A DNA stretch of 64,000 bases from Candidatus Bathyarchaeota archaeon (lineage in GTDB: Archaea > Thermoproteota > Bathyarchaeia > Bathyarchaeales > Bathycorpusculaceae), in contig OY970280.1 in assembly GCA_963715865.1 (NCBI GenBank), positions 1,662,486 through 1,726,485 of the forward strand, in the 5' to 3' direction. Positions 12,550 to 44,012 of the stretch are shown piece by piece (positions within the stretch are counted from its first letter, which is position 1; each line of letters opens with the position of its first letter). Made by a program: the position numbers and the translations under genes. The notes under the pieces were generated by a model. That model was not told the origin of the DNA and did no database searches. It was given only the letters and a program-made list of their open reading frames with translations.

Positions 12550-12658
12550 TGGTGCCGGGGGCGGGATTCGAGCCCGCGACTTCTGGGTATAAGGCGCTTG
12601 CCCCTATGACTCTCCAGATTATGAGTCTGGCGCCCTAGCCAGGCTGGGCTACCCCGGC
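12550..12658 (-). tRNA. tRNA-Met(CAT) with encoded CCA and a 31-nt intron (12581-12611) at non-canonical position 45/46
   Basis: GCCGGGG acceptor, anticodon arm CCAGA-CTCATAA-TCTGG, T-arm GCGGG-CTCGAAT-CCCGC; bulge-helix-bulge with central helix CTGG/CCAG; splicing restores variable loop AGGTC. Confidence 0.92.
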
Positions 12659-17593: not shown

Positions 17594-18951
17594 TTATGAA
17601 TTATAATTACTTATCCCTATAGTTTGGGACTTATTATCCATATTTTTGAAGCTTCCGAAGCGTTTAGGCTTCCTGTAGAAATGCATCGTAATTCCGTTGA
17701 ATGTAGCTTCATCATATTTTGTCCAGCCAGCCTTTCCTAAAGCACGAATCTCTTCAACTGTTGTTACAACGGTTTCCTCATAATCTTCCTCTTTGAACTC
17801 GATAGTATGCACATATTTCTGCGTGCTCTTCCACGACTTATGCCTCAGCAATCTTGCGATAACAACAGCATTCCCATTCGAATAGTACGCTATCATAGAG
17901 CCGCCCCAATGACGGAACGATTTAAAACTGATCTGTAGCAATGCAGGATTCTGGAATTTTGCGGCAGCCTTTACGACGAAGCGCTGCAAGGCATACATAA
18001 GCAGTCCGATAGGTCATTGGAAAAATCCGTTTGTTTTCCCTAGGCAAAGCATTCAACATGCAGGTCAAACGCATCGACAACTCGTATTTACCAGGGTAAT
18101 GGAACTTCACTGGATGATTAATACTGAACACATTATCCTTGAGGTCAATCCATTCAGCATCAAGAATCTCTGACGGATCAGCAAAAGTCTCTTTAAGGCA
18201 CAGCAGAAAAGTAGCCATACGCTTACTCGCAGCACTAATAAGCAAATCAAGGTCTTTCTCATCAGGCACAATGATAGTAGCTTCCCTCTGACGATACAGC
18301 GGACGCTGCCAAACAATCCCCTCCATCTGACAAAACGCATCATAAGCACACACCGCCAGCATTTTCATACTGTCACTCCAAGGCTCACCATTCTTCTTTT
18401 TCTGCTTAGCAATTACCATCTTCACATTTTCAGAGTCCAACAGGTCAGCGCCATCACCGACAAGATGCGTCAGAATATCAGGGTACGTTATATCTTCATC
18501 AAAACCATTACGCTCCAAGTACGCCATGAATTTTGTAATCAAGCCACGCACAGCTTCAGGTAACAGGTCCAGATGCTTCAGTTTTCTTCTTGTCTCCCGC
18601 AACAGTCTTTAATTCTGCTGCAGAGGTCAAATTTTTCGCTCCCAAAGCGCATATTTGGCGTTTAGAAGCTAAGGCACTGGACGTATTTAATGACCTTTCA
18701 GAACTTTCTTGTAACGGTGGTGACCCTTTAAGGGTCGGTCTCTCGCTAAAACGGAATCCGCAATCCCTGCAAAGCCAACGCTGAACACTAGATTTATCAC
18801 TCCTATAACGCAGGCCATCACGATAAACCTTCGTCACCTTAGGACTGCAACTGGGGCATAGGGGGCTGGCGCCATCACTAGCCAACTTGCCCAAACCAAC
18901 ACTGCCAAATACACGCTCTTGAGCAAGACCAACCATTCCCTCCCCAGCCAT
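17594..18951 (-). CDS. Tyrosine integrase with N-terminal IS1-like zinc ribbon, interrupted by two apparent +1 frameshifts (~18575 and ~17970)
   Basis: Three consecutive ORFs join as CPSC...QRWLCRDCGFRFS, core, then FKSFRHWGGS...LLRHKSWKSTQKY (H-x-x-R-like box, H, catalytic Y). Confidence 0.85.
17603..17616 (+). repeat. attL core ATAATTACTTATCC
   Basis: Identical to 57423-57436; lies inside the last codons of the integrase ORF. Confidence 0.75.
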
Positions 18952-19112
18952 CTTAACCCTCCGTAAATACGCGACCGTTCTCTTCAGCCAAATCCATCAA
19001 TTCTTTGCGTTTAGCAGCTTCCTTAAGGCGTCTATCACATGGTCCACAATAATTAACAAACCGAGAAACGACGTCACCGCATTCTCGGCAGTGATGATGC
19101 TCAGGGACGCCT

Positions 19113-19763
19113 TCAGCCAACAGTTTCACCTAACTCGCCTTTTGGACCTACAGAAGAATCCACGGTGACGGCGGCGCCTTCAGCGGCAGCTACTTCTTGA
19201 CCATCATAGGTGAAGCTGACAACTTCGAAAGTTCCAAACGAGCCCTTATGCTGAGGCCTATAATCCAGCAAACCCATCCGGACACCCGCATCTTCCAAAA
19301 TTTCTTTCAGCGTAGCCTCGATGCCTTCAGGCAGCCACTTAACATTATAGACAAGCCTAAACTTTGCACTCCATTGCAATAGTTTCGCTCTGCCTTTAAG
19401 AACCCGCTGCGACTGAATCACAACCGCCCGCTCATCAACCACGTACTGATCCGTACCCAAAGGAATCTTCTCAGGCTCCACACGCATCGTACCAGCAAGC
19501 AAACTCGAAAGCGAAACCCTATGAACCCTGTACTGCTTAGCCGTATTGATAAGCATGCTCTGCACGCATTCCTGAGGAATGTAAAGCTGGTTTTTGCCGT
19601 TGATCACTGCCATGTAAGCGCTGTTCTTTGCATCGTTCTCTGTACTATAGTTCTGCGTCTTCATTTTACTTTTACTTTTCAAACTTTCCGGATTCAACCG
19701 GTTCATTAGCAAGGGCGTTAAGCCCTTAATTTCAACATCTATTTTTTTAAAGTTTTGACTCAT
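19113..19763 (-). CDS. Virus-encoded RAMP/Cas7-like protein, candidate effector of the adjacent repeat array
   Basis: N-terminal IKGLTPLLM, YIPQECVQSML, WSAKFRL and glycine-rich C-terminal AGVRMGLLDYRPQHKGSFGTFEV, the pattern of RAMP/Cas7-group folds; no other cas genes nearby. Confidence 0.7.
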   Translation of the reverse strand: MSQNFKKIDVEIKGLTPLLMNRLNPESLKSKSKMKTQNYSTENDAKNSAYMAVINGKNQLYIPQECVQSMLINTAKQYRVHRVSLSSLLAGTMRVEPEKIPLGTDQYVVDERAVVIQSQRVLKGRAKLLQWSAKFRLVYNVKWLPEGIEATLKEILEDAGVRMGLLDYRPQHKGSFGTFEVVSFTYDGQEVAAAEGAAVTVDSSVGPKGELGETVG

Positions 19764-19768
19764 TTTTG

Positions 19769-20795
19769 TAACCTCACGTTACCATACCTGAGAGCACTGT
19801 AGCTAACGGCGCCCCGCCTTCCCTCACTAAACCAAAATAGCGGCTTACCATGCCTCACAATACATCGCATCACCAAGCCAGGCATCACTGAACTCAACCT
19901 AACTGGACACCGCAAAACATGACCTAACCGCGATGATACCAAGGAATACCACGCATTACGCGACAGGACAGTACCAAGCCAAACTTGACCCCGCCTTAAT
20001 AACGCCAAAGAACACTTCGCCTTGCTGTACCTCACCACTGCTAACCACAATGAAAGCAAAGATTGCAGCAACCGTGCCAAACCGCAACTCACAAAACCCC
20101 GCTTGACATTGCCAAACCTCAATAAAACCATGCCAAGCCTTGCATAACCGTACTTCACAGGACCAAACTTCGCCACGCCGTAGAGTGCCTCGCGACTCCA
20201 AGCCACGCAACGCCGTAATAACGCCAAACCATGCAAAACCATACCGTGCAGTACACCAACCCGCTCCACGATACCAAACAGGGCCTCTCCAAACCACGAT
20301 AACACTTTACCACACAAAACCAAGCCCCGCACCACAGATCCCCACGCAACGCAACAGGACCTCGCTAAGCCACAATAGCACCTAACCGTAGAGAACAAAG
20401 CACCACTTGACCCAACAGAACCGGACTCCACTCCGCTACACCATAATAAAAGCTTGGCTTGCCTTGCTTCACCCAACCGGACCGTTCCCTGCCATAATGA
20501 AAGCTTAGAGAAACTATCCTCGCAAAGCCGTACCTTACGATACCTAACCGGACAGGACAGAATAGTGCCATGCAATACTAAACCTCGCAACGCCTCAATA
20601 ATAGCAAACCTAGCAAACCTTACTTTACTCAACCTAGCAGTACAGGGCCTCACAAGACCTAGAAACACAAGACCAGACCTAAGAATACACTGCCGGGCAC
20701 CACTACACACCACAGGACCATACCTGACATCAATAGCGCCACACCTTACCTTAGAGGACCGGGCAACACCGCATCTTACCCCACGACACTTGACC
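19769..20795 (-). ncRNA. Array of ~178 pentamers (NGY-NN) in ~13 blocks split by GYTATT-like spacers; candidate guide-RNA array
   Basis: 5-nt periodicity seen directly (e.g. GGT-CA AGT-GT CGT-GG GGT-AA GAT-GC GGT-GT); separators GCTATTGA, GCTTTCATTAT, GTTATCGT, GTTATTAC, GTTATTAA, GCTATTTT; sits between a stop codon and the RAMP ATG. Confidence 0.8.
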
Positions 20796-21548
20796 CTAAA
20801 CATGAAAACGCAACCTCTCAAAATCCAAATGCGCCCGATTAACCAACTCTTTAATGACAGGATCATCCAGCGGAAAACGCCCCGACTCCGCCAGACTACA
20901 AAACAGCACCAAAGCGTTCTTCAGCTCCACAAGCTCACGGCCACTCAAACCAGGCTGAACCTTCCCATTCTTGGAATCCACATGAAACCGCTTGCCGCAT
21001 GGCGCCGTCAAAGTCACAATAGGCGCAGCAGACTCACGGTAAATCTCAGCAGCCGGAACATGCACAAGCGCCACGATATCTTTCACGTCAAATTTGAACT
21101 TTTTAAGCCGAGCAATGTTATCCTTAAGCTCCACGTCGCTGAAACCCTTGCCATGGCCACTATTAAGCCTCACCGCCTCAGCAAACAACTCAGCCTCACT
21201 AGAAAACGGCAACTCAGAACATTCCGCATACTCAACCTTGCGAAGCTTCCGAGAACTAAACCGATGAACACCATCAACAAGAATCTTCTGACCCTTGAAA
21301 ACGCCAACCTTCAAAGTTGGAAAAACACAACCCGCATCCAAAGCCCTGGCATAATTTTCAACAACCCTCTGATCAATCTCCTTACGCGGATAAAGACTCC
21401 AATCAAAAACCAGATCAGCAAGCTTCTCAATACGAACTGGCGCCCTATCCCAATCCTTAAACGCAAAACCAGCAGCTGGCTTAACCTCAACGCTCTTTTG
21501 CGGAGCAGGCGGCATATAAACAACTTTACCAGCAACAGGAGACTTCAA
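20796..21548 (-). CDS. ParB/Srx N-terminal-domain protein
   Basis: LYPRKEID, ILVDGVHRF, AVRLNSGHG. Confidence 0.8.
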   Translation of the reverse strand: MKSPVAGKVVYMPPAPQKSVEVKPAAGFAFKDWDRAPVRIEKLADLVFDWSLYPRKEIDQRVVENYARALDAGCVFPTLKVGVFKGQKILVDGVHRFSSRKLRKVEYAECSELPFSSEAELFAEAVRLNSGHGKGFSDVELKDNIARLKKFKFDVKDIVALVHVPAAEIYRESAAPIVTLTAPCGKRFHVDSKNGKVQPGLSGRELVELKNALVLFCSLAESGRFPLDDPVIKELVNRAHLDFERLRFHV

Positions 21549-22326: not shown

Positions 22327-22557
22327 TCATTTCTCAGGTCCCTCTATGATTTTGTCTAGTTTCTTCTGAGCGTAAGCTTCAATCCTGACAGTAACATTAT
22401 GCCCTAACGGGTACTCCTGGTACAGTGCGGAACTCTCGCTCTTAATAGACAACTTCATTTTCGGGTCACTGCATTCCAGCGTAACCTTGAACACTGGCAA
22501 TTCAGCGGCGTTCTGGCTTTTCGTATGACTGCGTACAATCATGTCATATTCAGTCAA
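22327..22557 (-). CDS. Viral hypothetical protein
   Basis: Coupled to the upstream ORF. Confidence 0.6.
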   Translation of the reverse strand: MTEYDMIVRSHTKSQNAAELPVFKVTLECSDPKMKLSIKSESSALYQEYPLGHNVTVRIEAYAQKKLDKIIEGPEK

Positions 22558-23410
22558 GCTTCTTCACCTCTGTTTTTCTCGGTTTATTTTGTAAGCGATA
22601 GAACTCTCTGATTTTTTCAAAGATTACATTACGCAACTTGGCATCGACAGCATCGCGCTCAGGCTTCCACTTGGCATCGACAGCATCGAGCTCAGCGTTC
22701 CACTTGGCATAGACAGCATCGCGCTCAGGCTTCCACTTGGCATCGACAGCATCGCGCTCAGGCTTCCACTTGGCATCGACAGCATCGCGCTCAGGCTTCC
22801 ACTTGGCATAGACAGCATCGCGCTCAGCGTTCCACTTGGCATAGACAGCATCGCGCTCAGGCTTCCACTTGGCATCGACAGCATCGAGCTCAGCGTTCCA
22901 CTTGGCATAGACAGCATCGCGCTCAGCGTTCCACTTGGCATAGACAGCATCGCGCTCAGGCTTCCACTTGGCATAGACAGCATCGAGCTCAGCGTTCCAC
23001 TTGGCATAGACAGCATCGAGCTCAGGCTTCCACTTGGCATCGACAGCATCGAGCTCAGCGTTCCACTTGGCATAGACAGCATCGAGTTCAGCGTAATATC
23101 TCAACAAAAGCTCTTTTGAAATGCCGTTAGGATCTTGATTCTTTAGCAACCGCACAGATCGACAAACACATTTCTTGTTCTCATCACTCCAAGCCTCAAT
23201 TCCATAAGCCTCAGCGAAAAACACTTGACAATCAGAGTTAAGCCAGTCCCGTGGGTCCATCGTTAAATGAAAACCCCGACTGCACATCGACAAATTGCCT
23301 TTCACAATATATTTCTTGCCAAGCTTCCAGGTCTGATGACCACCGTTGTAGCTCTGCATGTTCCGCAGGACTTTGAAAAGAATCACAGGTTTTTCTTTTT
23401 TATCAGTCAT
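22550..23410 (-). CDS. Viral protein with N-terminal C..GFH domain and ~14 x 11-aa helical repeats
   Basis: GNLSMCSRGFHL domain followed by repeats DAV(Y/D)AKW(NA/KP)E(L/R). Confidence 0.75.
   Translation of the reverse strand: MTDKKEKPVILFKVLRNMQSYNGGHQTWKLGKKYIVKGNLSMCSRGFHLTMDPRDWLNSDCQVFFAEAYGIEAWSDENKKCVCRSVRLLKNQDPNGISKELLLRYYAELDAVYAKWNAELDAVDAKWKPELDAVYAKWNAELDAVYAKWKPERDAVYAKWNAERDAVYAKWNAELDAVDAKWKPERDAVYAKWNAERDAVYAKWKPERDAVDAKWKPERDAVDAKWKPERDAVYAKWNAELDAVDAKWKPERDAVDAKLRNVIFEKIREFYRLQNKPRKTEVKKLD
22637..23093. repeat. 33-bp tandem repeat, ~14 copies, coding
   Basis: Unit cttggcat(c/a)gacagcatcg(c/a)gctcag(gc/cg)ttcca seen directly. Confidence 0.95.
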
Positions 23411-23948: not shown

Positions 23949-24089
23949 TTAGCCCTCCTGCTTGCAACCTTGCAAAAGTAGATGCTCTATTACCTCAGGA
24001 ATCGTACGATTCGTATTTTCCGCGATTTTTTCAAGTTTACCATAAATAGCATCTTTTACGGTTATGCTTCTATAGCCTTCTCGTGGCAT
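23949..24089 (-). CDS. Ribbon-helix-helix-like regulator (46 aa, absent from ORF track)
   Basis: Manual translation MPREGYRSITVKDAIYGKLEKIAENTNRTIPEVIEHLLLQGCKQEG. Confidence 0.7.
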   Translation of the reverse strand: MPREGYRSITVKDAIYGKLEKIAENTNRTIPEVIEHLLLQGCKQEG

Positions 24090-24207
24090 TCACCTATCTC
24101 CTTGAATGTACTCTATTGTACCGTACCATATATAAGATTTGGGTACATTCTGGTACATGAAATAACGTTTATATAGAATGTACGGTACATTCTGTTTTGA
24201 CACAATC
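24090..24207. promoter_or_regulatory. Divergent promoter/operator region with GTAC-core repeats
   Basis: Perfect palindrome GAATGTAC-G-GTACATTC (24176-24192), half-sites at 24104 and 24143, TATA-like TATATAAG (~24129) and TTTATATAG (~24168). Confidence 0.7.
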
Positions 24208-24393
24208 ATGCCAAGAATAGGATACAAAAGTATAACCGTACCTAACGATGTTTACGAGTTTTTCAAAAATGAATGGTTAAAAAACAAAGATCAACTACGC
24301 CGAAGAGGAATCCGTAGTTTCTCTGGGTATGTTACTTCTCGTCTTAATCAATTAATGGAAGAAGAAGAGAAGAAACGTAATGAAGAAACGTAA
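24208..24393 (+). CDS. Ribbon-helix-helix-like regulator (repressor candidate)
   Basis: MPRIGYKSITVPNDVYEFF, paralogous N-terminus to 23949-24089; one of few plus-strand proviral genes. Confidence 0.7.
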   Translation: MPRIGYKSITVPNDVYEFFKNEWLKNKDQLRRRGIRSFSGYVTSRLNQLMEEEEKKRNEET

Positions 24394-31680: not shown

Positions 31681-32649
31681 CTAAGGCTGGCTAAGCGGGA
31701 ACCCGTTTCTCCGCAAATTACTCAACACGCGATTCGTAAGCTTATCAGCATCATAATTACTAGCGAACGTGCTACCTCTCGCGTCAACACTTATGCTCAT
31801 CGCGTTATTGCGAGTTTCAGACGCAGTTTGAACAGATTCGCCCTGGTGCAGCTGGTACATGCCCGTTTCAGCAACGTAGTTAGTTTCAGACGCAGTTTGA
31901 ACAGATTCGCCCTGGTGCAGCTGGTACATGCCCGTTTCAGCAACGTAGTTAGTGCCAAACTGATGACTACCCAAGCTTTCATACGCAACAATGCCGGCGA
32001 CAGCAGCAGCGCCAGCAAGCATAAACGGAACAGCAGCACCCATCGAAGACACTGCATTCGCAATAAAAGATGCGGCTGCCCGAGCGTACTCAGCGATTGA
32101 TGCTGCAATACTACTAGCCGTTATCGCGGCTATAGCAGCTGCGAAGGCTCCACTCACGGCGGCGCCGACAGTTGAAATAGCCGAGGTAAAAGCGGTTGCA
32201 GCGCCCCGAGCATTCTCCGCAATCGCCGCAGCAATACTACTACTTGTGATAGCAGCTATGGCGCCTGCGAATGCACCGCTAACAGCAGCCCCAACACTTG
32301 AGACCGCTGTTGTAAATGTGGTTGCAGCAGCACGCGCGTTCTCAGCAATAGTAGCCGCAGTTTCAGCCGACGTCAAAACCGAAAGAGCCGCCGAAAAATC
32401 GCGGATAATGCTAATTACGCTCATGGCTGCGCCGACAGCTTCAAACGCAGCAGCCATCTGCTTCAACGTAGTGTTATTCAAGCCAAGCAAAGTGTTCAAG
32501 CGCATGATGCTTGTGCCAGCACGGCTAAAATCCATAGCTAAGCCGCGAACGCTCAAGCTAACGCCTGAAATGTTACCCGTAACCTCGTCAGTTGTAGCTT
32601 TCACCAAGTTACGGCCAGTAAACGTGAAAACTACTTCATGCTCACTCAA
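31681..32649 (-). CDS. Tape measure protein (short, 322 aa)
   Basis: Ala-rich helical repeats; C-terminal HQFGTNYVAETG..LHQGESV motif; follows the TAC and gp10-like genes. Confidence 0.75.
   Translation of the reverse strand: MSEHEVVFTFTGRNLVKATTDEVTGNISGVSLSVRGLAMDFSRAGTSIMRLNTLLGLNNTTLKQMAAAFEAVGAAMSVISIIRDFSAALSVLTSAETAATIAENARAAATTFTTAVSSVGAAVSGAFAGAIAAITSSSIAAAIAENARGAATAFTSAISTVGAAVSGAFAAAIAAITASSIAASIAEYARAAASFIANAVSSMGAAVPFMLAGAAAVAGIVAYESLGSHQFGTNYVAETGMYQLHQGESVQTASETNYVAETGMYQLHQGESVQTASETRNNAMSISVDARGSTFASNYDADKLTNRVLSNLRRNGFPLSQP
31813..31950. repeat. Exact 69-bp tandem duplication in the TMP
   Basis: NYVAETGMYQLHQGESVQTASET encoded twice with identical DNA. Confidence 0.9.
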
Positions 32650-36599: not shown

Positions 36600-38814
36600 T
36601 CACCATTCAGTTCCATCGATGATAGCCCTGTATTTTTCCACGTAGTTCATAGCCATGATTCTGCGGCTGAACTTCTCAGCGTTATGCCTGCACATCTTCG
36701 CTGAAATATGCAAATGATCCACAGCGTATGCCACAGCGTCCGCCATTGCTTCAGCGTCAGCGCAAACGACTCCGCCTTCCTTAACGGTTTCAGGCATGGC
36801 ACCATCCGCCAAAACAATCGCGGGCGTGCCACATGCCATCGCTTCGATAGGCACAAGCCCGAAGGGTTCACCCATCCGTGAAGGAACAAGCACGGCTTTC
36901 GCATTCTGCATTAACTCAACTTTAGTCGCGTTGTCCGCATCAACATATATTTTAACGCGGTCACCATCACAGCGATTCTTAATCTGCTGCAAATAATTTG
37001 GGTCTTGCACAAATGAGCCGCCCACCAAATCAATCGGCAAATTAAGCTTTTCAGCTACGGCTAAAGCAACATGCGGCTGTTTAAACACGTCAAAACGCCC
37101 AACAAACAAGAGCCTATTAGATTTCTGGCTTTTAAGCGGGTATTTGTTGAGGTCCACGCCATTATATACTCGCTGTGAAACCATCCCTTGTTGCTGGTAA
37201 ACTTTTTGCATCCAGTCAGATATCGCTATGAAATTCAGATGGAACGGCGGCTTCTGCTTTAGCCACCACTCAGGATTTAATCCGCCGTGGTGAGTATGGC
37301 AAACTTTCAATTCAGGATGCTTAGCTTTAGAAAGATACTCGAAGCCAAGCCAGTTATGACCGTGAATTATGTCAAACTGCGTGAGCTGCGCCTCTATTTT
37401 GCGGTGTGCATCACGTTCAGTAGCAACCCAATCATGCTCTACTCTGTCGAATGGTGCACCGATAGAAACAATGCTGCATCCAGGAACAGCGGAACCGTCA
37501 GGCGCGAACACGGTGACTTCGTGACCCATCAACGCGAGTTCTTCAGCGAGATCATAAACGATTTGTTCTAAGCCGCCGTAGTTTTGAGGCGGTACAGTGA
37601 ATATAGGTGTACTCAGTAACCCAATTTTCAGTTTTGCATCCTTAGATTTAGCCGTGTGGACATGTATGGGTGCTTCTGTTTTGGACAGAATCAAAATGCC
37701 TGACGCTTCAGTTTTGCTTAATGTTCCTTTGGGTACAAGTTCAGCGCAGAAAAAGCTCCAGCCGTCATAACTGAGGACTTCAACTTTCGACTCGTAATCA
37801 GATGGCATTGACTTATCAAGGAGTTGCTGGAAAGATTCAGGCGTATCCCAACGCACATGGTAGAGGTGCATGCCGCCGTCGCTTACATCAAATTCCTTGC
37901 AAGTTGGATTAGATTCTTTGCCTTCTGTGACGAGGTCTTTGCCTGTGCGCTTCATGTTTTCCTCCACAGTCTCGTAAGGACGCAGCACTGCAGCCCAATC
38001 TTTCGGGTTCGGCGTAGTAATCAAAACCCGTCGTGCAACGCGCAAAGCGCCTTTTATGAGGACGTCGGGGGTTTTGGAGTGCTCAACGATTTCGCCTAAA
38101 ACGGCGGTGTCAAACTGTTTATCTCGGAAGCCGCTTTCCTCTTCAGATATGAGTTTGTGCGCGTCTAACTTGTGGAATCTTGGCAGGTCATAAACATCCA
38201 TGTCCACGCTTGTCACCTGGTCTTCAAAGCCGCTGTGCAGAAATACTTGGCCTGTGTTGCAGCCGATGTTTATGATTGATTCGCCTTTGCGGATTTGCCT
38301 GAGGATCCATACGCTTCTGTCTTCCATTCGGTTAGCGGTTAATATCATGTCGGTGCTGCATTGGGGATGGCAGCGGACAACGATGCACATGAAGCCTAAT
38401 TTTTGGAATAGTTCAGCGAGGTATTTTGGGCTGAAACCGCATTTGTGTGCGCCGCTACTGTTTTCTTGTCCGCCGAACAGCATGCAACTGGAATCTTGTG
38501 TCCATTCGCCTTTCAACGTGATTTGCCGGCACTGTTCCTGCGTGTTTGCGGTGACGATTTCGACTTTGCCGTTTAATGAGAGGATGCGGTGTAACTCAGA
38601 AATGAACTGTTCAAGATTGCGCCAGCTTATGTGCTCGATTGCGTAAGCGCTATAAACGTAGTCGTAGGCGCCTGATTCTGAAGGGCAGGGGCTTCTCAAA
38701 ATCCGCGACTAAATCAACTGTGGGTAAGGCTCGGTTATCAACGTTCAACCCGTTACCAAGAAGCTTGGAAAACCTCGGATTCTCGCCGCCGCCAAGCTCT
38801 ATATTTTTCATCAT
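36600..38814 (-). CDS. Double class I SAM methyltransferase + GT4 glycosyltransferase fusion; apparent +1 frameshift near 38680
   Basis: Upstream frame gives MKNIELGGGENP (SAM motif), then INIGCNTG, then GT4 PPQNYGGLE...EPFGLVPIEAMACGTP. Confidence 0.8.
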
Positions 38815-39710
38815 ATTACTCCTTTTTCGATGTTTAGTTGGTATTGGACTTGTTCAAGACTCATGGCATAGCTGCATGACCCGCATAGTTCAATTGTACC
38901 GCGTTTTCCCGTTCTGTGCAGCTCACGCAAACCATCCATGCTACGCCAAACCTCAAGAACACTCTGTTTATTTACGTCTCCAACGATGTTTCTGCCGTTG
39001 GGGTCATAGCAGCACGCGCAGACTTCGCCGTTCCATAAGATAACCATGCAACCGTAAATCATGCTGCAGGGAACATCAATCGGGTTATTTGCGCAGTTGC
39101 CGTTGATGTCTTTGTTCGTTGTCAAATTATGGAATGAAATCAAACTGCCGTATTGCTGCGTGAGTAGGTCGCGCTCCAAGTCAGATATGATGTTTGCGGA
39201 CGCGCCTAAACTCACGGTTACGCCAGAGCCAGACAAAGCCTCAAGTAAACCGCGGAGCCGGTGCAAATTCTCTTTAGGCAAGCCAATGAGGCGCTCGTAG
39301 GTTTCGTCGAAGTAAGCGTAGGCGCTGAAAGACAAAAGCAAGTTTTTAACTGTCTTCAATTTTGCTATGACATTTTCATCGATGCAACTGAAGTTTGTTG
39401 GCACCGCGATTTTTGTATTTGGCAACTTCTCATTAATTTTTTGGAGAATAAGGTGCCAATCTGGGTTTAGGAAGAATTCGCCGTAATGCACAGGCACAAT
39501 TTCCCTGCAAGGCTGCTTCCAACTAGAGACCTCATCAAGAATTTTATCGATTAGTTGCATGCTCATTTTGCCTTTAGGACGCGTCATAGACCTGTAACCG
39601 CAGAACACGCATCGGGCATTGCAGAAGCCGTAGGTTTCAAGATGCAAATACGGGTATTCTAAAGGTTTTAAGGTATCACGGTAATATTCGGTGTACTCTT
39701 GACAATTCAT
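38811..39710 (-). CDS. Radical SAM/SPASM-domain protein
   Basis: CNARCVFC motif; C-terminal PC...GEVCACCYD...C..C. Confidence 0.88.
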   Translation of the reverse strand: MNCQEYTEYYRDTLKPLEYPYLHLETYGFCNARCVFCGYRSMTRPKGKMSMQLIDKILDEVSSWKQPCREIVPVHYGEFFLNPDWHLILQKINEKLPNTKIAVPTNFSCIDENVIAKLKTVKNLLLSFSAYAYFDETYERLIGLPKENLHRLRGLLEALSGSGVTVSLGASANIISDLERDLLTQQYGSLISFHNLTTNKDINGNCANNPIDVPCSMIYGCMVILWNGEVCACCYDPNGRNIVGDVNKQSVLEVWRSMDGLRELHRTGKRGTIELCGSCSYAMSLEQVQYQLNIEKGVI

Positions 39711-40705
39711 TGCCAGAACACCTTGTATTTTTCGCGGATGATTGCCCACGTGTTTTTTAACGCTGTTGCCCTAGCATTCAAACCCATTTCCGCAACTTTA
39801 TCAGGATTCTTTTGGAAAAACTTGATTTTCTCCGCGATTGCATCTGGACTTCTTATCGGCACCACAAACCCATCTACGCCTTCAGTGATTAATTCGTTGG
39901 CGCCTGCGCCTTCAGTCACAATCACAGGACGCCCATAACTCATAGCTTCCAACACAGGAATTCCGAAGCCTTCCGTCACAGACGGTTGCACGTAAACGCT
40001 TATTCTTTTGTAGAATTCTGCTGTATCGGGGATTACGCCTGCGCCGCCTAAACTTTCCGTGCCAGGTCCTGCCAGCCGCGCCTGAACATCGACTTGCTTG
40101 AGCGCTTGCACGTAATAGATTTGCCCTTTGTCAGGTCCGTTTACGCCAAGGTGTCCAACCGTGAATGTTTCGGGCATAGGCGGGATTTCTTTAGGCGGGT
40201 TGCATCCATGCGGAATAACTGTGTAATCGGAGATTCCGAGTTTCTGTTTGAGGTATTCGCCGCTTACTTTGCTGTGAACTATAACGGTGTCAGCGGTTGC
40301 GACGTGGCGCATGTACAACTGAAAAAGCGTTGGGTTGTTGAGGTGCGGATAAGGAAAATTGTAGCCGAGTTTTTGGTGTTCTTCTCGGCTTAATTCAATG
40401 TTGTGGGGTGCTACGTCAGCGATGATTTGTGCGCTGTGCCGCTGCCTAATGTTTAGCGTAGTTAAGGGAAAAGGGCTGCCGTAAATTACGGCTGTTTGTG
40501 CGTCAGGGCTGAAAAGGCTCGCAAAGTAGTCGTATAGGAAAGGCGATTCAGGCTGCTCATATAGTATGGGACTACATGTTTTAGCGTCTATGATCCAGTT
40601 TAGGCATGTGGATTCTTTGAGGGCTTGTATTATGTTTTGGCAGACTACGCCGCCGCCCGTGTCATTGCGGATTAAGGTGTTAGTGACGAAGCAACTGGAT
40701 TTCAT
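39707..40705 (-). CDS. GT4 glycosyltransferase
   Basis: VYVQPSVTEGFGIPVLEAMSYGRPVI. Confidence 0.9.
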   Translation of the reverse strand: MKSSCFVTNTLIRNDTGGGVVCQNIIQALKESTCLNWIIDAKTCSPILYEQPESPFLYDYFASLFSPDAQTAVIYGSPFPLTTLNIRQRHSAQIIADVAPHNIELSREEHQKLGYNFPYPHLNNPTLFQLYMRHVATADTVIVHSKVSGEYLKQKLGISDYTVIPHGCNPPKEIPPMPETFTVGHLGVNGPDKGQIYYVQALKQVDVQARLAGPGTESLGGAGVIPDTAEFYKRISVYVQPSVTEGFGIPVLEAMSYGRPVIVTEGAGANELITEGVDGFVVPIRSPDAIAEKIKFFQKNPDKVAEMGLNARATALKNTWAIIREKYKVFWQ

Positions 40706-42170: not shown

Positions 42171-44012
42171 TTATACGCCATGAAAGTTATCTGCGCTGAA
42201 ACGAGCAGCCGCCTTTCCATAAAGCAAATTCAAATTATTACCTAGAAACACGTATTTCGCTAAGAAACTTGTTGTTGGGTCACCTGCCAGAACGTAGCCT
42301 TGACCGCTGTTAACTGCGACGCCTCCAAGGTAAACCATGTTTGACAGCGCCAAGGAAAGGTCTGCCCGTTTACACGCTACCGATGGAAACTGAGTGCCGC
42401 TTGTGCCGACTAAAATTATGTTTCCTGTTACGGAACCATAAGCCTGCGAGTAATCATTGCAAATTTGCCCTGACATAGTCGCTGTGATTTGCGTAACAAC
42501 TGCACCTGAAAGCACCGTTACTATACTTCCAGATAACACAGTTATAGCGCCACTAATCGAAACGATGTTTCCTGAAACATTAGCGACAACGTTTGCTGAT
42601 GCGATGTTAGCCATTGTGCCTGAAGCTAAACTGACAGTTTGACCTGAAATTAACACGCCGACTCCAGAGGCAACGAACAATCCTGATAAAGTTGCAGTCG
42701 GCAAAGAAATGAATTGCCCTGACAGCGTAGCGACGGGTTGTTGAACGAACGCTCCTGAAGCAACCGCCACCATTTGCCCGCTAATCAATACACCTACACC
42801 TGACCCAACAGTGACAGCTAATCCAGATGCAACCACTAGTCCAGATTGAGTAGAAACAGGCAAAGATATGCTAAGTCCAGAAGCTAAATAGGCACCTGAA
42901 GCAACCGAAACAGTTTGACCGCTAATTAAAACGCCTAAGCCTGAATTAACGGATACTGAAGCGTTAACGTATAGTCCTGACGCAACCTGAACTGTTTGCC
43001 CAGAAATTAAAACTCCAAGCCCTGAGTTTACCGAAACAGCAGCATTAACGTATAATCCAGATGCAAGATAAACGCCTGAGCCAACAGCAACTGTTTGTCC
43101 ACTGATTAACACGCCGAGTCCAGAGTTGATGGAAACTGCCGCGTTCACGTAGGACCCTGAAGCGACTGTTACAATGTTTCCACTTACATTAACAGCATTA
43201 CCAGAAATAGACGTTGAGGGCACAGTTACGTTCAAACCCGATGCAACAACCAATCCCGAAAGAGTGGCTGTTGGCACTCTTACGTTTGCGCCTGACGCAA
43301 CCTGAACTGTTTGCCCAGAAATTAAAACTCCAAGCCCTGAGTTTACCGAAACAGCAGCATTAACGTATAATCCAGATGCAAGATAAACGCCTGAGCCAAC
43401 AGCAACTGTTTGTCCACTGATTAACACGCCGAGTCCAGAGTTGATGGAAACTGCCGCGTTCACGTAGGACCCTGAAGCGACTGTTACAATGTTTCCACTT
43501 ACATTAACAGCATTACCAGAAATAGACGTTGAGGGCACAGTTACGTTCAAACCCGATGCAACAACCAATCCCGAAAGAGTGGCTGTTGGTAGACTAATAA
43601 ATTGCCCAGACTGTGTTGAAACGGGTAATGCAACGTTTAATCCTGATGCTAAGTAGCCGCCTGAAGTTAAAGTAACGTTTTGTCCACTGACTTGAACGAT
43701 GTTTCCGCTGACAGATGTTTGGACTGTTCCGCTGACTATGACGGCGCCGCTGACCTGTCCGCCTTGATTTGCTACTGTGACGATTTGACCGCTAACAGCA
43801 ACAACATTACCGCTTACTGATGTACCGACAATTTGCCCAGAGACCTGCACGATTGCACCTGAAACCGCTGGACTAACAATATTTCCCTGTCCATCCTGAA
43901 CAGCAACAACTTCAGATTGCACATTACTGGTGCCTACTGTATTCTGGATTGTGCGCATTAAGACGCCGCTTGTAGGCTGCGCACCAATTTGAATCCTAGT
44001 GTCTATGCTCAT
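42171..44012 (-). CDS. 613-aa repetitive Val/Ser/Gly-rich virion fibre/spike candidate
   Basis: Dozens of xSG(Q/N/L) turns; 105-aa internal duplication; follows the MCP. Confidence 0.6.
   Translation of the reverse strand: MSIDTRIQIGAQPTSGVLMRTIQNTVGTSNVQSEVVAVQDGQGNIVSPAVSGAIVQVSGQIVGTSVSGNVVAVSGQIVTVANQGGQVSGAVIVSGTVQTSVSGNIVQVSGQNVTLTSGGYLASGLNVALPVSTQSGQFISLPTATLSGLVVASGLNVTVPSTSISGNAVNVSGNIVTVASGSYVNAAVSINSGLGVLISGQTVAVGSGVYLASGLYVNAAVSVNSGLGVLISGQTVQVASGANVRVPTATLSGLVVASGLNVTVPSTSISGNAVNVSGNIVTVASGSYVNAAVSINSGLGVLISGQTVAVGSGVYLASGLYVNAAVSVNSGLGVLISGQTVQVASGLYVNASVSVNSGLGVLISGQTVSVASGAYLASGLSISLPVSTQSGLVVASGLAVTVGSGVGVLISGQMVAVASGAFVQQPVATLSGQFISLPTATLSGLFVASGVGVLISGQTVSLASGTMANIASANVVANVSGNIVSISGAITVLSGSIVTVLSGAVVTQITATMSGQICNDYSQAYGSVTGNIILVGTSGTQFPSVACKRADLSLALSNMVYLGGVAVNSGQGYVLAGDPTTSFLAKYVFLGNNLNLLYGKAAARFSADNFHGV
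42976..43589. repeat. Two identical 299-bp direct repeats (42976-43274 and 43291-43589), period 315 bp
   Basis: Direct comparison of both copies. Confidence 0.88.

Follow-up and report, generated by a model that had tools for sequence, protein, structure and literature searches.

Systems named VIPR, for Viral Interference Programmable Repeat, have been described in two 2026 preprints (bioRxiv 10.64898/2026.04.26.720920; 10.64898/2026.04.26.720927). In these systems, a small ancestral RAMP protein, Vipr, polymerizes on guide RNAs (vrRNAs) of alternating GGY and NN, and the NN dinucleotides pair with double-stranded DNA (dsDNA), whereby one target base per unit, mostly the codon wobble position, is skipped. 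The loci are mostly viral or proviral and contain an accessory gene, vap; seven types are distinguished, which include tail-less "staggered" arrays and a relaxed repeat, YNNNG (same references). Binding of dsDNA and repression of transcription have been demonstrated by experiment, natural targets were found on both strands, and repression at the 5' untranslated region was obtained from either strand (bioRxiv 10.64898/2026.04.26.720920). The vrRNAs, of 9–16 repeats, end in a conserved structured 3' tail, the targets reported so far are satellites, prophage regulators and viruses, and no self-targeting hits were found in the source contigs (VIPR preprints). According to the VIPR cryo-EM preprint, D177, R138 and R179 of the Vipr protein of SUSP1 contact GGY bases, as does Y176 in the Pseudomonas fulva protein, and binary complexes can take up single-stranded RNA (ssRNA) in vitro. 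Here, we analyzed a stretch of 64,000 nt from a Candidatus Bathyarchaeota archaeon (the window). We estimate a probability of about 80% that its region 19769-20795 is the guide-RNA array of a VIPR system that resides in a Bathyarchaeia provirus and is aimed at methyltransferases.

The array and its two flanking genes

The region 19769-20795 is exactly the gap between two minus-strand open reading frames (ORFs), bounded by the stop codon of 20796-21548 and the ATG of 19113-19763. Its plus strand is rich in A and C (C 365, A 344, G 159, T 159). At a lag of 5 nt, the sequence is identical to itself at 0.43, compared to about 0.25 at the neighboring lags, and this value decays steadily over 10, 15 and 20 nt. 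No 3-nt signal was present in the autocorrelation, and a lag-5 periodicity of this kind was found nowhere else in the 64-kb window. The minus strand was segmented by a small dynamic program, which yielded about 213 units with the consensus D-G-Y-N-N. Position 2 is a G in 81% of the units and position 3 is T or C in 95%, positions 4 and 5 are near random, and position 1 is G in 47%, T in 29% and A in 19%, so that the first G is relaxed. Thirteen units have a length of 6 nt and are usually followed by an ATY-NN unit. They delimit guide-sized blocks of 10–24 units, a pattern like that of the staggered-array variant. A strict higher-order repeat of about 76 nt was rejected, because the spacings of the junctions are irregular, with values of 5n+1. 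Neither 3' tails nor ribozymes were found in the array, and no Rfam family was found in the region.

In an independent short-read contig (L007), the array is identical over its full length, which excludes an assembly artefact. Twelve related arrays were drawn from IMG/VR, metagenome-assembled genomes (MAGs) and metagenome contigs, and in all 12 loci the same pentanucleotide array lies upstream of the RAMP gene on the same strand (13 of 13 with the window); the array ORFs of these loci are 54–85% identical in sequence. Near-identical DNA was not present in phage or E. coli collections.

The gene downstream of the array encodes a protein of 216 aa that has 251 homologues at about 70–80% identity and no Pfam domain. 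The preliminary description of this DNA had called this neighbor RAMP-like, and two lines of evidence bear this out. First, a profile of 35 homologues matched a single PDB sequence, 36pp_D, "SUSP1 Vipr protein" (E = 3.5e-6, residues 26–185). D167-Y168-R169 and R125 of the window protein align with D177-W178-R179 and R138 of the SUSP1 protein, and the aligned GGY-reading residues are invariant or nearly so across the 35 homologues. Second, an AlphaFold (AF2) model of the protein, with a confidence score (pLDDT) of 85.7, was matched by Foldseek to Csm3, Cas7 and Cas7-11 chains with E values of about 1e-5. The homology to Vipr and the conserved GGY-reading residues identify the locus as a VIPR system, and by analogy the window Vipr would polymerize on the GGY repeats. 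Indeed, each of the sequence-level hallmarks of VIPR that we examined is present, that is, RAMP homology, the GGY-reading residues, a GGY/NN array, targets with a 1-nt skip, and a vap gene. VIPR is thus an already known kind of system, of which the window locus is a member from an archaeal provirus. Several other readings of the repeats were set aside after the homology to Vipr had been found, namely TRAP-like, CsrA-like or nucleocapsid-like RNA binding, a G-quadruplex, Rho-utilization tracts, a ParB centromere, primase sites and telomere-like repeats.

The gene vap lies directly upstream of the array also in 12 of the 12 related loci. Its true start is probably located about 20 codons inside the maximal ORF. 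The Vap protein (250 aa) has a weak PHROG match to the ParB-like family phrog_1033, and its model (pLDDT 85.7) was matched by Foldseek to Noc, ParB and KorB with E values from 3e-7 to 1e-5. A DGxHR motif is invariant in the Vap alignment. The word ParB is absent from the VIPR preprint. The absence of a nuclease fused or adjacent to the RAMP-like protein, likewise part of the preliminary description, was confirmed: the accessory gene folds like ParB, Noc and KorB, no Cas10, HD or other nuclease gene is found nearby, and PADLOC yielded no significant defence match among the neighboring ORFs.

Decoding of the guides and their matches in databases

GGY is confined to the minus strand and runs in the same direction as vap and vipr. 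As Vipr reads 5'-GGY-3', the functional RNA would be the minus-strand transcript, given the specificity known for its homologues. In accordance with the published 1-nt-skip rule, each NN was read as codon positions 1 and 2 in the 5'-to-3' sense of the minus strand (decoding letters: d = D/E, f = F/L, i = I/M, n = K/N, q = H/Q, c = C/W, y = Y). Of the roughly 15 guides in the window, seven or more, like their counterparts in the 12 related arrays, decode to motifs that are the most conserved ones in DNA methyltransferases (Table 1). Across the 13 arrays, the decoding yields textbook motifs, namely GNAVPP, GGPPCQ.FS, TSPPY, DPF.GSGTT, DPCCGSGGFL, GQFFTPR and NPPFG. Despite their divergence in sequence, the relatives repeat the repertoire of the window and add LILTNPPFG, DPPY, and the C5 motifs VI (ENVPG) and VIII. 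Overall, the repertoire covers motifs IV, VI, VIII and X of the C5 class, motifs IV and I of the beta N4/N6 class, motifs X, I and IV of the gamma/HsdM class, and the Dam-type DPPY.

When seven textbook motif patterns were applied to six arrays, 28 matches in sense and none in antisense orientation were obtained, compared to a mean of 0.34 and a maximum of 3 in 1000 shuffles of the NN order. In addition, a single rule was fixed for the two-fold positions; the peptides that it gave matched almost only DNA methylase families in Pfam, and the matches were located at the expected motif positions (PF00145, 59–78; PF01555, 1–15 and 180–196; PF02384, 49–63; PF02086, 176–188), with a further match to MmeI_Mtase.

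Public DNA was searched with exact guide cores written as NNxNNx, with a skip of 1 nt. The SPPY core found one site in IMG/VR, which lies in frame at EVDLIITSPPY in an ORF above the threshold of PF01555 (N6_N4_Mtase) and matches 33 of the 40 NN bases of the full guide. Two IMG/VR sites, both in frame, were matched by the GQFFTPR core, and the ORF at the site in L018 belongs to PF02384. Sixteen sites were found in metagenomes with the DPCCGSGG core; all of them are in frame and in sense orientation, lie at the motif V[FL]DPCCGSGG in ORFs of 309–659 aa, and match 26–28 of 30 NN bases. Four of these 16 ORFs were scanned against Pfam, and N6_Mtase was found in all four, Eco57I in three and HsdM_N in one; these matches place type I/IIG methyltransferases among the targets, in line with the preliminary description. 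Over the whole guide, the NN match amounts to 87–93% for the 16 metagenome sites and to 81–92% for the three viral sites. Taken together, all 19 exact-core matches with real flanking support (19 of 19) are in frame and in sense orientation with the NN on codon positions 1 and 2, and the skipped base was computed to fall on the wobble position. Guides of other arrays match further motifs in the same genes, that is, NPPFG in L031 and GQFFTPR in L033.

The remaining guides gave fewer results. Ten decoded peptides of unassigned guides had no match in Pfam, and neither the exact core of the V(F/L)VDTTV(D/E)FP(D/E)T guide nor the core of the GPY.S.L guide had a database match. A degenerate version of the former core led to one primase-like ORF and was rejected, the match of the flanks being at chance level (5 of 18). 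Some unassigned motifs may resemble those of PAPS-reductase/DndC (SGGKDS, DTG..FPET) and TGT/DpdA (DSGGF); of these, only the PP-loop pattern SGG.DS is enriched, with 2 matches compared to 0.004 expected. If the array serves to disarm DNA modification (see below), it would probably also address DNA-modification enzymes other than methyltransferases.

No site in the window reaches an NN match of 72% over a whole guide, and no stretch of 12 units reaches 21 of 24 NN bases, either in the window or in the other VIPR-bearing loci; no matching methyltransferase target had been seen in the window at the outset, either. The lack of self-targets in the window agrees with their published absence for other VIPRs. 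Furthermore, Pfam scans of proviral ORFs did not reveal a gene for a DNA methyltransferase.

Table 1. Positions of the VIPR locus, its guides and associated features in the window. Alternatives at two-fold decoding positions are given in parentheses.
Feature	Position	Strand	Description
Provirus integrase	17594..18951	-	At the element's left end; divided among three frames in the window
vipr	19113..19763	-	216-aa minimal RAMP (Cas7-like RRM core, thumb, glycine-rich loop)
Open frame	19760..20866	-	368 codons, spans the whole array; TGA overlaps the ATG of vipr (ATGA)
vrRNA array	19769..20795	-	About 205 D-G-Y-N-N units, in roughly 15 guides of 10–24 units; junctions mostly a 6-nt unit plus ATY-NN
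Remaining guides	19770..20219	-	Span includes the HsdM guide; recurrent motifs V(F/L)VDTTV(D/E)(F/L)P(D/E)T, (D/E)(F/L)(K/N)(Q/H)G.(D/E)A(F/L)T, VYVDT.., ..GPY.S(D/E)L.., ..(K/N)GAYTA...
Guide	19935..20000	-	(K/N)GQ(F/L)(F/L)TPR(K/N)V: GQFFTPR motif of HsdM-type N6 methyltransferases
Guide	20220..20300	-	V(F/L)DP(F/L)(I/M)GGGTT: motif I of beta-class N4/N6 methyltransferases
Guide	20301..20376	-	V(F/L)DP(C/W)(C/W)GSGG(F/L)(F/L)V: motif I of gamma-class N6 methyltransferases (type I HsdM, type IIG)
Guide	20377..20447	-	(I/M)VGGPSCQG(F/L)S: C5 methyltransferase motif IV (PCQ); relatives carry GGPPCQ(P/G)FS
Guide	20499..20599	-	(D/E)V(D/E)(F/L)(I/M)(I/M)TSPPY...: motif IV of beta-class N4/N6 methyltransferases
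Probably two guides	20616..20734	-	24 units; first (D/E)(Q/H)(I/M)PGVGP, helix-hairpin-helix-like in look; second L(D/E)PTY, reads LDPPY in close relative L001
Guide	20735..20795	-	Q-V-G-N-A-V-P-P-(K/N)(K/N)-V-A: motif X of C5-cytosine methyltransferases
vap	20796..21548	-	ParB/Srx N-domain and helical DNA-binding domain; immediate upstream neighbor of the array

Purpose of the guides and alternative explanations

All recognizable guides, which represent about ten independent motif types, carry the sense of the target coding strand. Guides in the mRNA sense cannot pair with the mRNA, and pairing is possible only with the template strand of the DNA. This polarity had been the starting point of the preliminary description, and both the motif matches (28 of 28 sense) and the database matches uphold it. 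Pairing with the template strand may stop an elongating polymerase inside genes more effectively. Alternatively, it may spare the ribonucleoprotein (RNP) from titration by abundant target mRNA, which is conceivable because uptake of ssRNA in vitro has been shown.

By homology with the SUSP1 and P. fulva systems, transcription of the minus-strand operon, in the order vap (ParB/KorB-like), array and vipr (minimal RAMP), would yield vrRNAs of about 10–20 GGYNN units. Vipr protomers would polymerize on the vrRNA, each burying one GGY and presenting the next NN, and the filament would bind dsDNA that matches the NN pairs with one skipped base, form an R-loop and block transcription without cutting. 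Pairing of the vrRNA with the template strand would mean that it is neither titrated by the mRNA nor acts on it. The DNA targeting with a transcriptional roadblock that had been proposed for this locus agrees with the published dsDNA binding and repression by VIPR (bioRxiv 10.64898/2026.04.26.720920), and every link in the reasoning of the preliminary description either held up in the tests or fits published results on the family.

What would such a complex be used for? On balance, we slightly favor the view that the wobble-blind guides recognize protein families, and that the array, with its template-strand pairing and its translatable frame coupled to vipr, represents an RNA-guided "epigenetic disarmament" of all main methyltransferase classes. 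The anti-restriction or anti-competitor purpose suggested in the preliminary description, transcription of the array, and repression in the host are inferences. The most likely purpose would be the family-wide silencing of DNA-modification genes on incoming competitor viruses and other mobile elements, to which we give roughly even odds. The DNA of the competitor would stay unmodified and would be exposed to restriction by the host. A secondary effect would be the knock-down of type I/IIG restriction-modification (R-M) operons, in which restriction requires the methyltransferase subunit. Viruses commonly carry the C5, beta N4/N6 SPPY and DPPY classes as orphan methyltransferases. The guide set covers enzyme classes with which viruses and other mobile elements often protect their DNA, as well as the methyltransferase subunit that type I/IIG enzymes need for restriction, which favors competitor silencing over both a knock-down of host R-M and self-regulation.

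The best surviving alternative, although unlikely, is that the guides are aimed mainly at host R-M (type I hsdM-hsdS-hsdR operons and type IIG fusions), to the benefit of the virus, its progeny and incoming relatives. The GQFFTPR, DPCCGSGGFL and NPPFG guide families match genes of the HsdM/Eco57I type, which are typical of cellular R-M, and silencing of the methyltransferase gene in type I/IIG systems also removes restriction. However, enzyme that has already been made would cut incoming DNA ahead of any silencing, and a resident provirus is already methylated. In addition, most of the other guide families match classes that are common as viral orphan methyltransferases, and published VIPRs lack self-targeting hits in their source contigs just as the 64-kb window lacks a target. 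Distinctly more doubtful is a regulation of the virus' or the host's own epigenetic state outside any conflict, in which the guides would tune the expression of viral or host methyltransferases in the lysis-lysogeny decision or in phase variation. In the P. fulva clade, many natural guides target lysogeny regulators (VIPR preprint), and the window locus adjoins the integrase and is close to a putative switch region, but no guide target was found in the provirus and no DNA methyltransferase among its Pfam-scanned ORFs. Moreover, four unrelated methyltransferase classes addressed at their most conserved motifs indicate breadth, not one regulated gene.

The array is also spanned by an open frame. 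It contains no stop codon over 1032 nt, whereas the other two frames contain 23 and 20. Of 12 arrays, 9 have a frame that stays open across 99% or more of the gap between vap and vipr; besides the window, the open frame is present in L001–L005, L009, L010, L015 and L016. Shuffling of the units gave a longest open stretch of about 300 nt on average. The frame is split in two in L013 and L014, and therefore it is common, but not obligatory. In units whose NN is AA, AG or GA and in which a T as the Y base would introduce a stop codon into the frame, Y is a C in 51 of 52 cases, compared to only 24–33% of the units in the other two phases. Thus, the open frame is maintained by the scaffold, not by the guides. 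The conservation of GGY is equal in all three codon phases, including 88–91% G at third positions, which means that the protein sequence itself is not what is conserved. The phrase "open reading" does not occur in the text of the VIPR preprint. Probably, the frame is translated as a leader rather than encoding a folded protein. Tentatively, translation through the array might couple the expression of vipr to free array RNA, or it might guard the long untranslated leader from polar transcription termination in archaea. The coupling of a translatable array to vipr would point to a feedback loop, in which loading of Vipr on its own guide transcript controls its synthesis, or else to an anti-polarity function.

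A chiefly protein-coding region, that is, a very basic pentapeptide-like repeat protein of 368 aa for which the decoding of the guides would be coincidental, is highly improbable. It would account for the frame that is open in most relatives, for the ATGA overlap with vipr, and for the fact that the gene was called in a few datasets. However, a 3-nt periodicity is missing, D-G-Y is equally conserved in every codon phase, the ORF has no Pfam or PHROG match and is split in L013 and L014, the signal of the decoded motifs exceeds that of all 1000 shuffles, and the neighboring gene encodes a Vipr homologue. A pentapeptide-repeat gene as the primary function is contradicted also by a periodicity that is independent of the frame, a 15-nt signal that is not above the 5-nt signal, and the lack of a family match. 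Least credible of all is RNA targeting, with methyltransferase mRNAs bound or cleaved by the complex in the manner of type III CRISPR RAMP complexes: the closest solved folds besides Vipr are indeed type III Csm3/Cas7, and VIPR binary complexes take up ssRNA in vitro, but all recognizable guides share the sense of the mRNA and so do not base-pair with it, and nuclease genes such as Cas10 or HD are lacking nearby.

Several points count against a methyltransferase-aimed VIPR array. What is assumed on the formation of the RNP, on processing sites, on the 1-nt-skip rule and on repression derives from a Vipr whose match to the family profile reaches only about 30 bits. The array sequence occurs in no RNA run searched; the runs that share words with it are DNA metagenomes from peat and wetland, with about 10% of the words. 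The motif patterns were composed after the decoding had been seen, while the Pfam and database tests are independent of the choice of patterns. About half of the guides carry decoded motifs without an assignment, and DNA-modification genes may be only a part of the repertoire. The exact core of the C5 motif-IV guide of the window, a GGPSCQ variant (GGPSCQGFS), had no match in IMG/VR, and in general the database matches show what the guides can match, not what the virus meets in its host. The search for self-targets covered 64 kb of the 2.35-Mb host contig. Lastly, the published type II systems target either strand, unlike the sense-only guides of the window.

Provirus setting and comparison with known systems

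The window contains a head-tail provirus, which has genes for a portal, a terminase, a capsid and a tail tube; its integrase is located at about 17.6–18.95 kb. The provirus lies in an archaeal chromosome, to judge from genes for an RPA-like protein, HypF/HypD and LeuB. In genome collections, the only relatives of the Vipr protein are in two "Candidatus Bathyarchaeia" MAGs, one of them from SPRUCE peat. The VIPR locus lies at the integrase end of the provirus, near the putative switch region. The integrase is a single ORF of 451–467 aa in L007, L014 and L015, with Phage_integrase called in L014. An A-run at about 18585 is longer by one A in the window than in contig L007, which is otherwise near-identical; the difference is either a real frameshift or a homopolymer error of a long-read assembly; a second shift of the integrase frame is located near 17998.

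The divergent intergenic region at 24000-24300 contains several GTACCGTAC / GGTACAT repeats and is probably the operator region of the provirus regulatory switch. A weak lag-5 signal at 24.0–24.3 kb had been considered as a second array, which was rejected, because the signal is not based on GGY and stems from these GTACCGTAC-type repeats. Directly after vipr and overlapping its end, an ORF of 58 aa (18953-19129, minus strand) has weak sub-threshold zinc-ribbon matches. Gene calls exist for five related loci, and a short ORF (43–81 aa) takes the same place in L012, L014, L016 and L007 (the last being near-identical to the window), but not in L015; it may be a further component of the VIPR locus.

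Elsewhere in the window, a 33-nt unit is repeated 13.8 times with 92% identity at 22636-23091 and encodes an 11-residue repeat in a protein of 286 aa (ORF 22550-23410, minus strand) with an N-terminal DUF7666. The structural module contains two perfect duplications, a tandem one of 315 nt at 42976-43589 inside the 613-aa ORF 42171-44012 and one of 69 nt at 31813-31953 inside the ORF 31681-32649. Both look like recent events in fibre- or tail-like genes. Between the tail and head genes, the region 36600-40705 (minus strand) encodes a methyltransferase-glycosyltransferase fusion, a radical SAM/SPASM enzyme and a second GT4 glycosyltransferase; these enzymes may modify the virion or its DNA, and none is a recognizable DNA methyltransferase. 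At 12553-12658 (minus strand), the Rfam model detected a tRNA (58.9 bits, 106 nt) that ARAGORN missed, as would fit an intron-bearing archaeal tRNA.

The closest described systems are the type II VIPRs of Escherichia phage SUSP1 and of a Pseudomonas fulva prophage. The window shares with them a homologous Vipr with the same G-loop D-(W/Y)-R and thumb Arg, the GGY/NN pentanucleotide guides with one skipped base on the codon wobble position, and a two-gene locus that includes a DNA-binding accessory gene, is borne by a virus or provirus and lacks a nuclease. The differences concern mainly the array. In the window, vap and vipr enclose a single uninterrupted array of about 1 kb, whereas type II systems have separate vrRNAs of about 100 nt with structured 3' tails. 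The unit is less strict at its first G, which recalls the YNNNG variant, and the array is kept as an open reading frame. The guides spell methyltransferase motifs, and all recognizable ones are in sense orientation, while type II guides are directed against satellite and prophage regulator genes on both strands. In addition, the host is an archaeon, unlike those of the type II examples. In the staggered arrays, as described in the legend of figure S18 of the VIPR preprint, tails are lacking and each vrRNA begins where the last one ends, with an offset of 1 nt. In the window, most guide junctions carry a 6-nt unit, that is, a register shift of +1. In several relatives, some guides also succeed one another with the register unchanged.

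For Vap, the ParB/Srx N-domain and the helical DNA-binding domain resemble those of KorB, ParB and Noc, which are CTP-dependent DNA clamps, but the similarity in sequence is marginal, and box II reads DGxHR in Vap instead of GERRxR. To go by the titles of PDB entries 8qa8 and 8qa9, KorB is a long-range transcriptional co-repressor. If Vap acted as a co-repressor in the form of a CTP-dependent sliding clamp, an RNA-guided complex would have a partner of a new kind.

If the guides act as proposed, wobble skipping would defeat synonymous escape and would allow a short guide to address a whole enzyme family by a conserved motif, so that the virus could shut down whatever DNA-modification gene a competitor or an R-M system brings. 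DNA modification would be a target of RNA-guided conflicts between mobile elements, a new layer in the arms race of restriction and anti-restriction, and the natural guides would be ready-made, testable designs for the pan-family repression of methyltransferases. The strict template-strand bias and the open frame are concrete hints at the way in which VIPR stops polymerases during elongation, and at the control of its expression in archaea.

With class 1 CRISPR-Cas (Cas7/Csm3 filaments, nuclease-free Cascade interference), the window locus shares the RAMP fold. By homology to VIPR, the likeness would extend to polymerization on a guide RNA, periodic exclusion of bases, a dsDNA R-loop and repression without cutting. 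The window differs by the absence of CRISPR repeats and spacers, cas1/cas2, Cas5/6/8/10 and an adaptation module; CRISPR-type direct repeats were not found in the region, and no cas family was present among the Pfam matches of the neighbors or in the PADLOC results. The period is also different, 5 nt with 2 pairing bases in the VIPR array compared to 6 nt with 5 in class 1 CRISPR. The presumed role of the window system lies on the same battlefield of modification and restriction as that of the DNA mimics Ocr and ArdA and of virus-borne orphan methyltransferases. In contrast to these, the presumed weapon is an RNA-guided repressor of genes, which would act on whole enzyme families via their conserved motifs. 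In the two VIPR preprints, DNA targeting is already published, whereas the guides against methyltransferase motifs, the strict template-strand pairing and the translatable array are absent from them.

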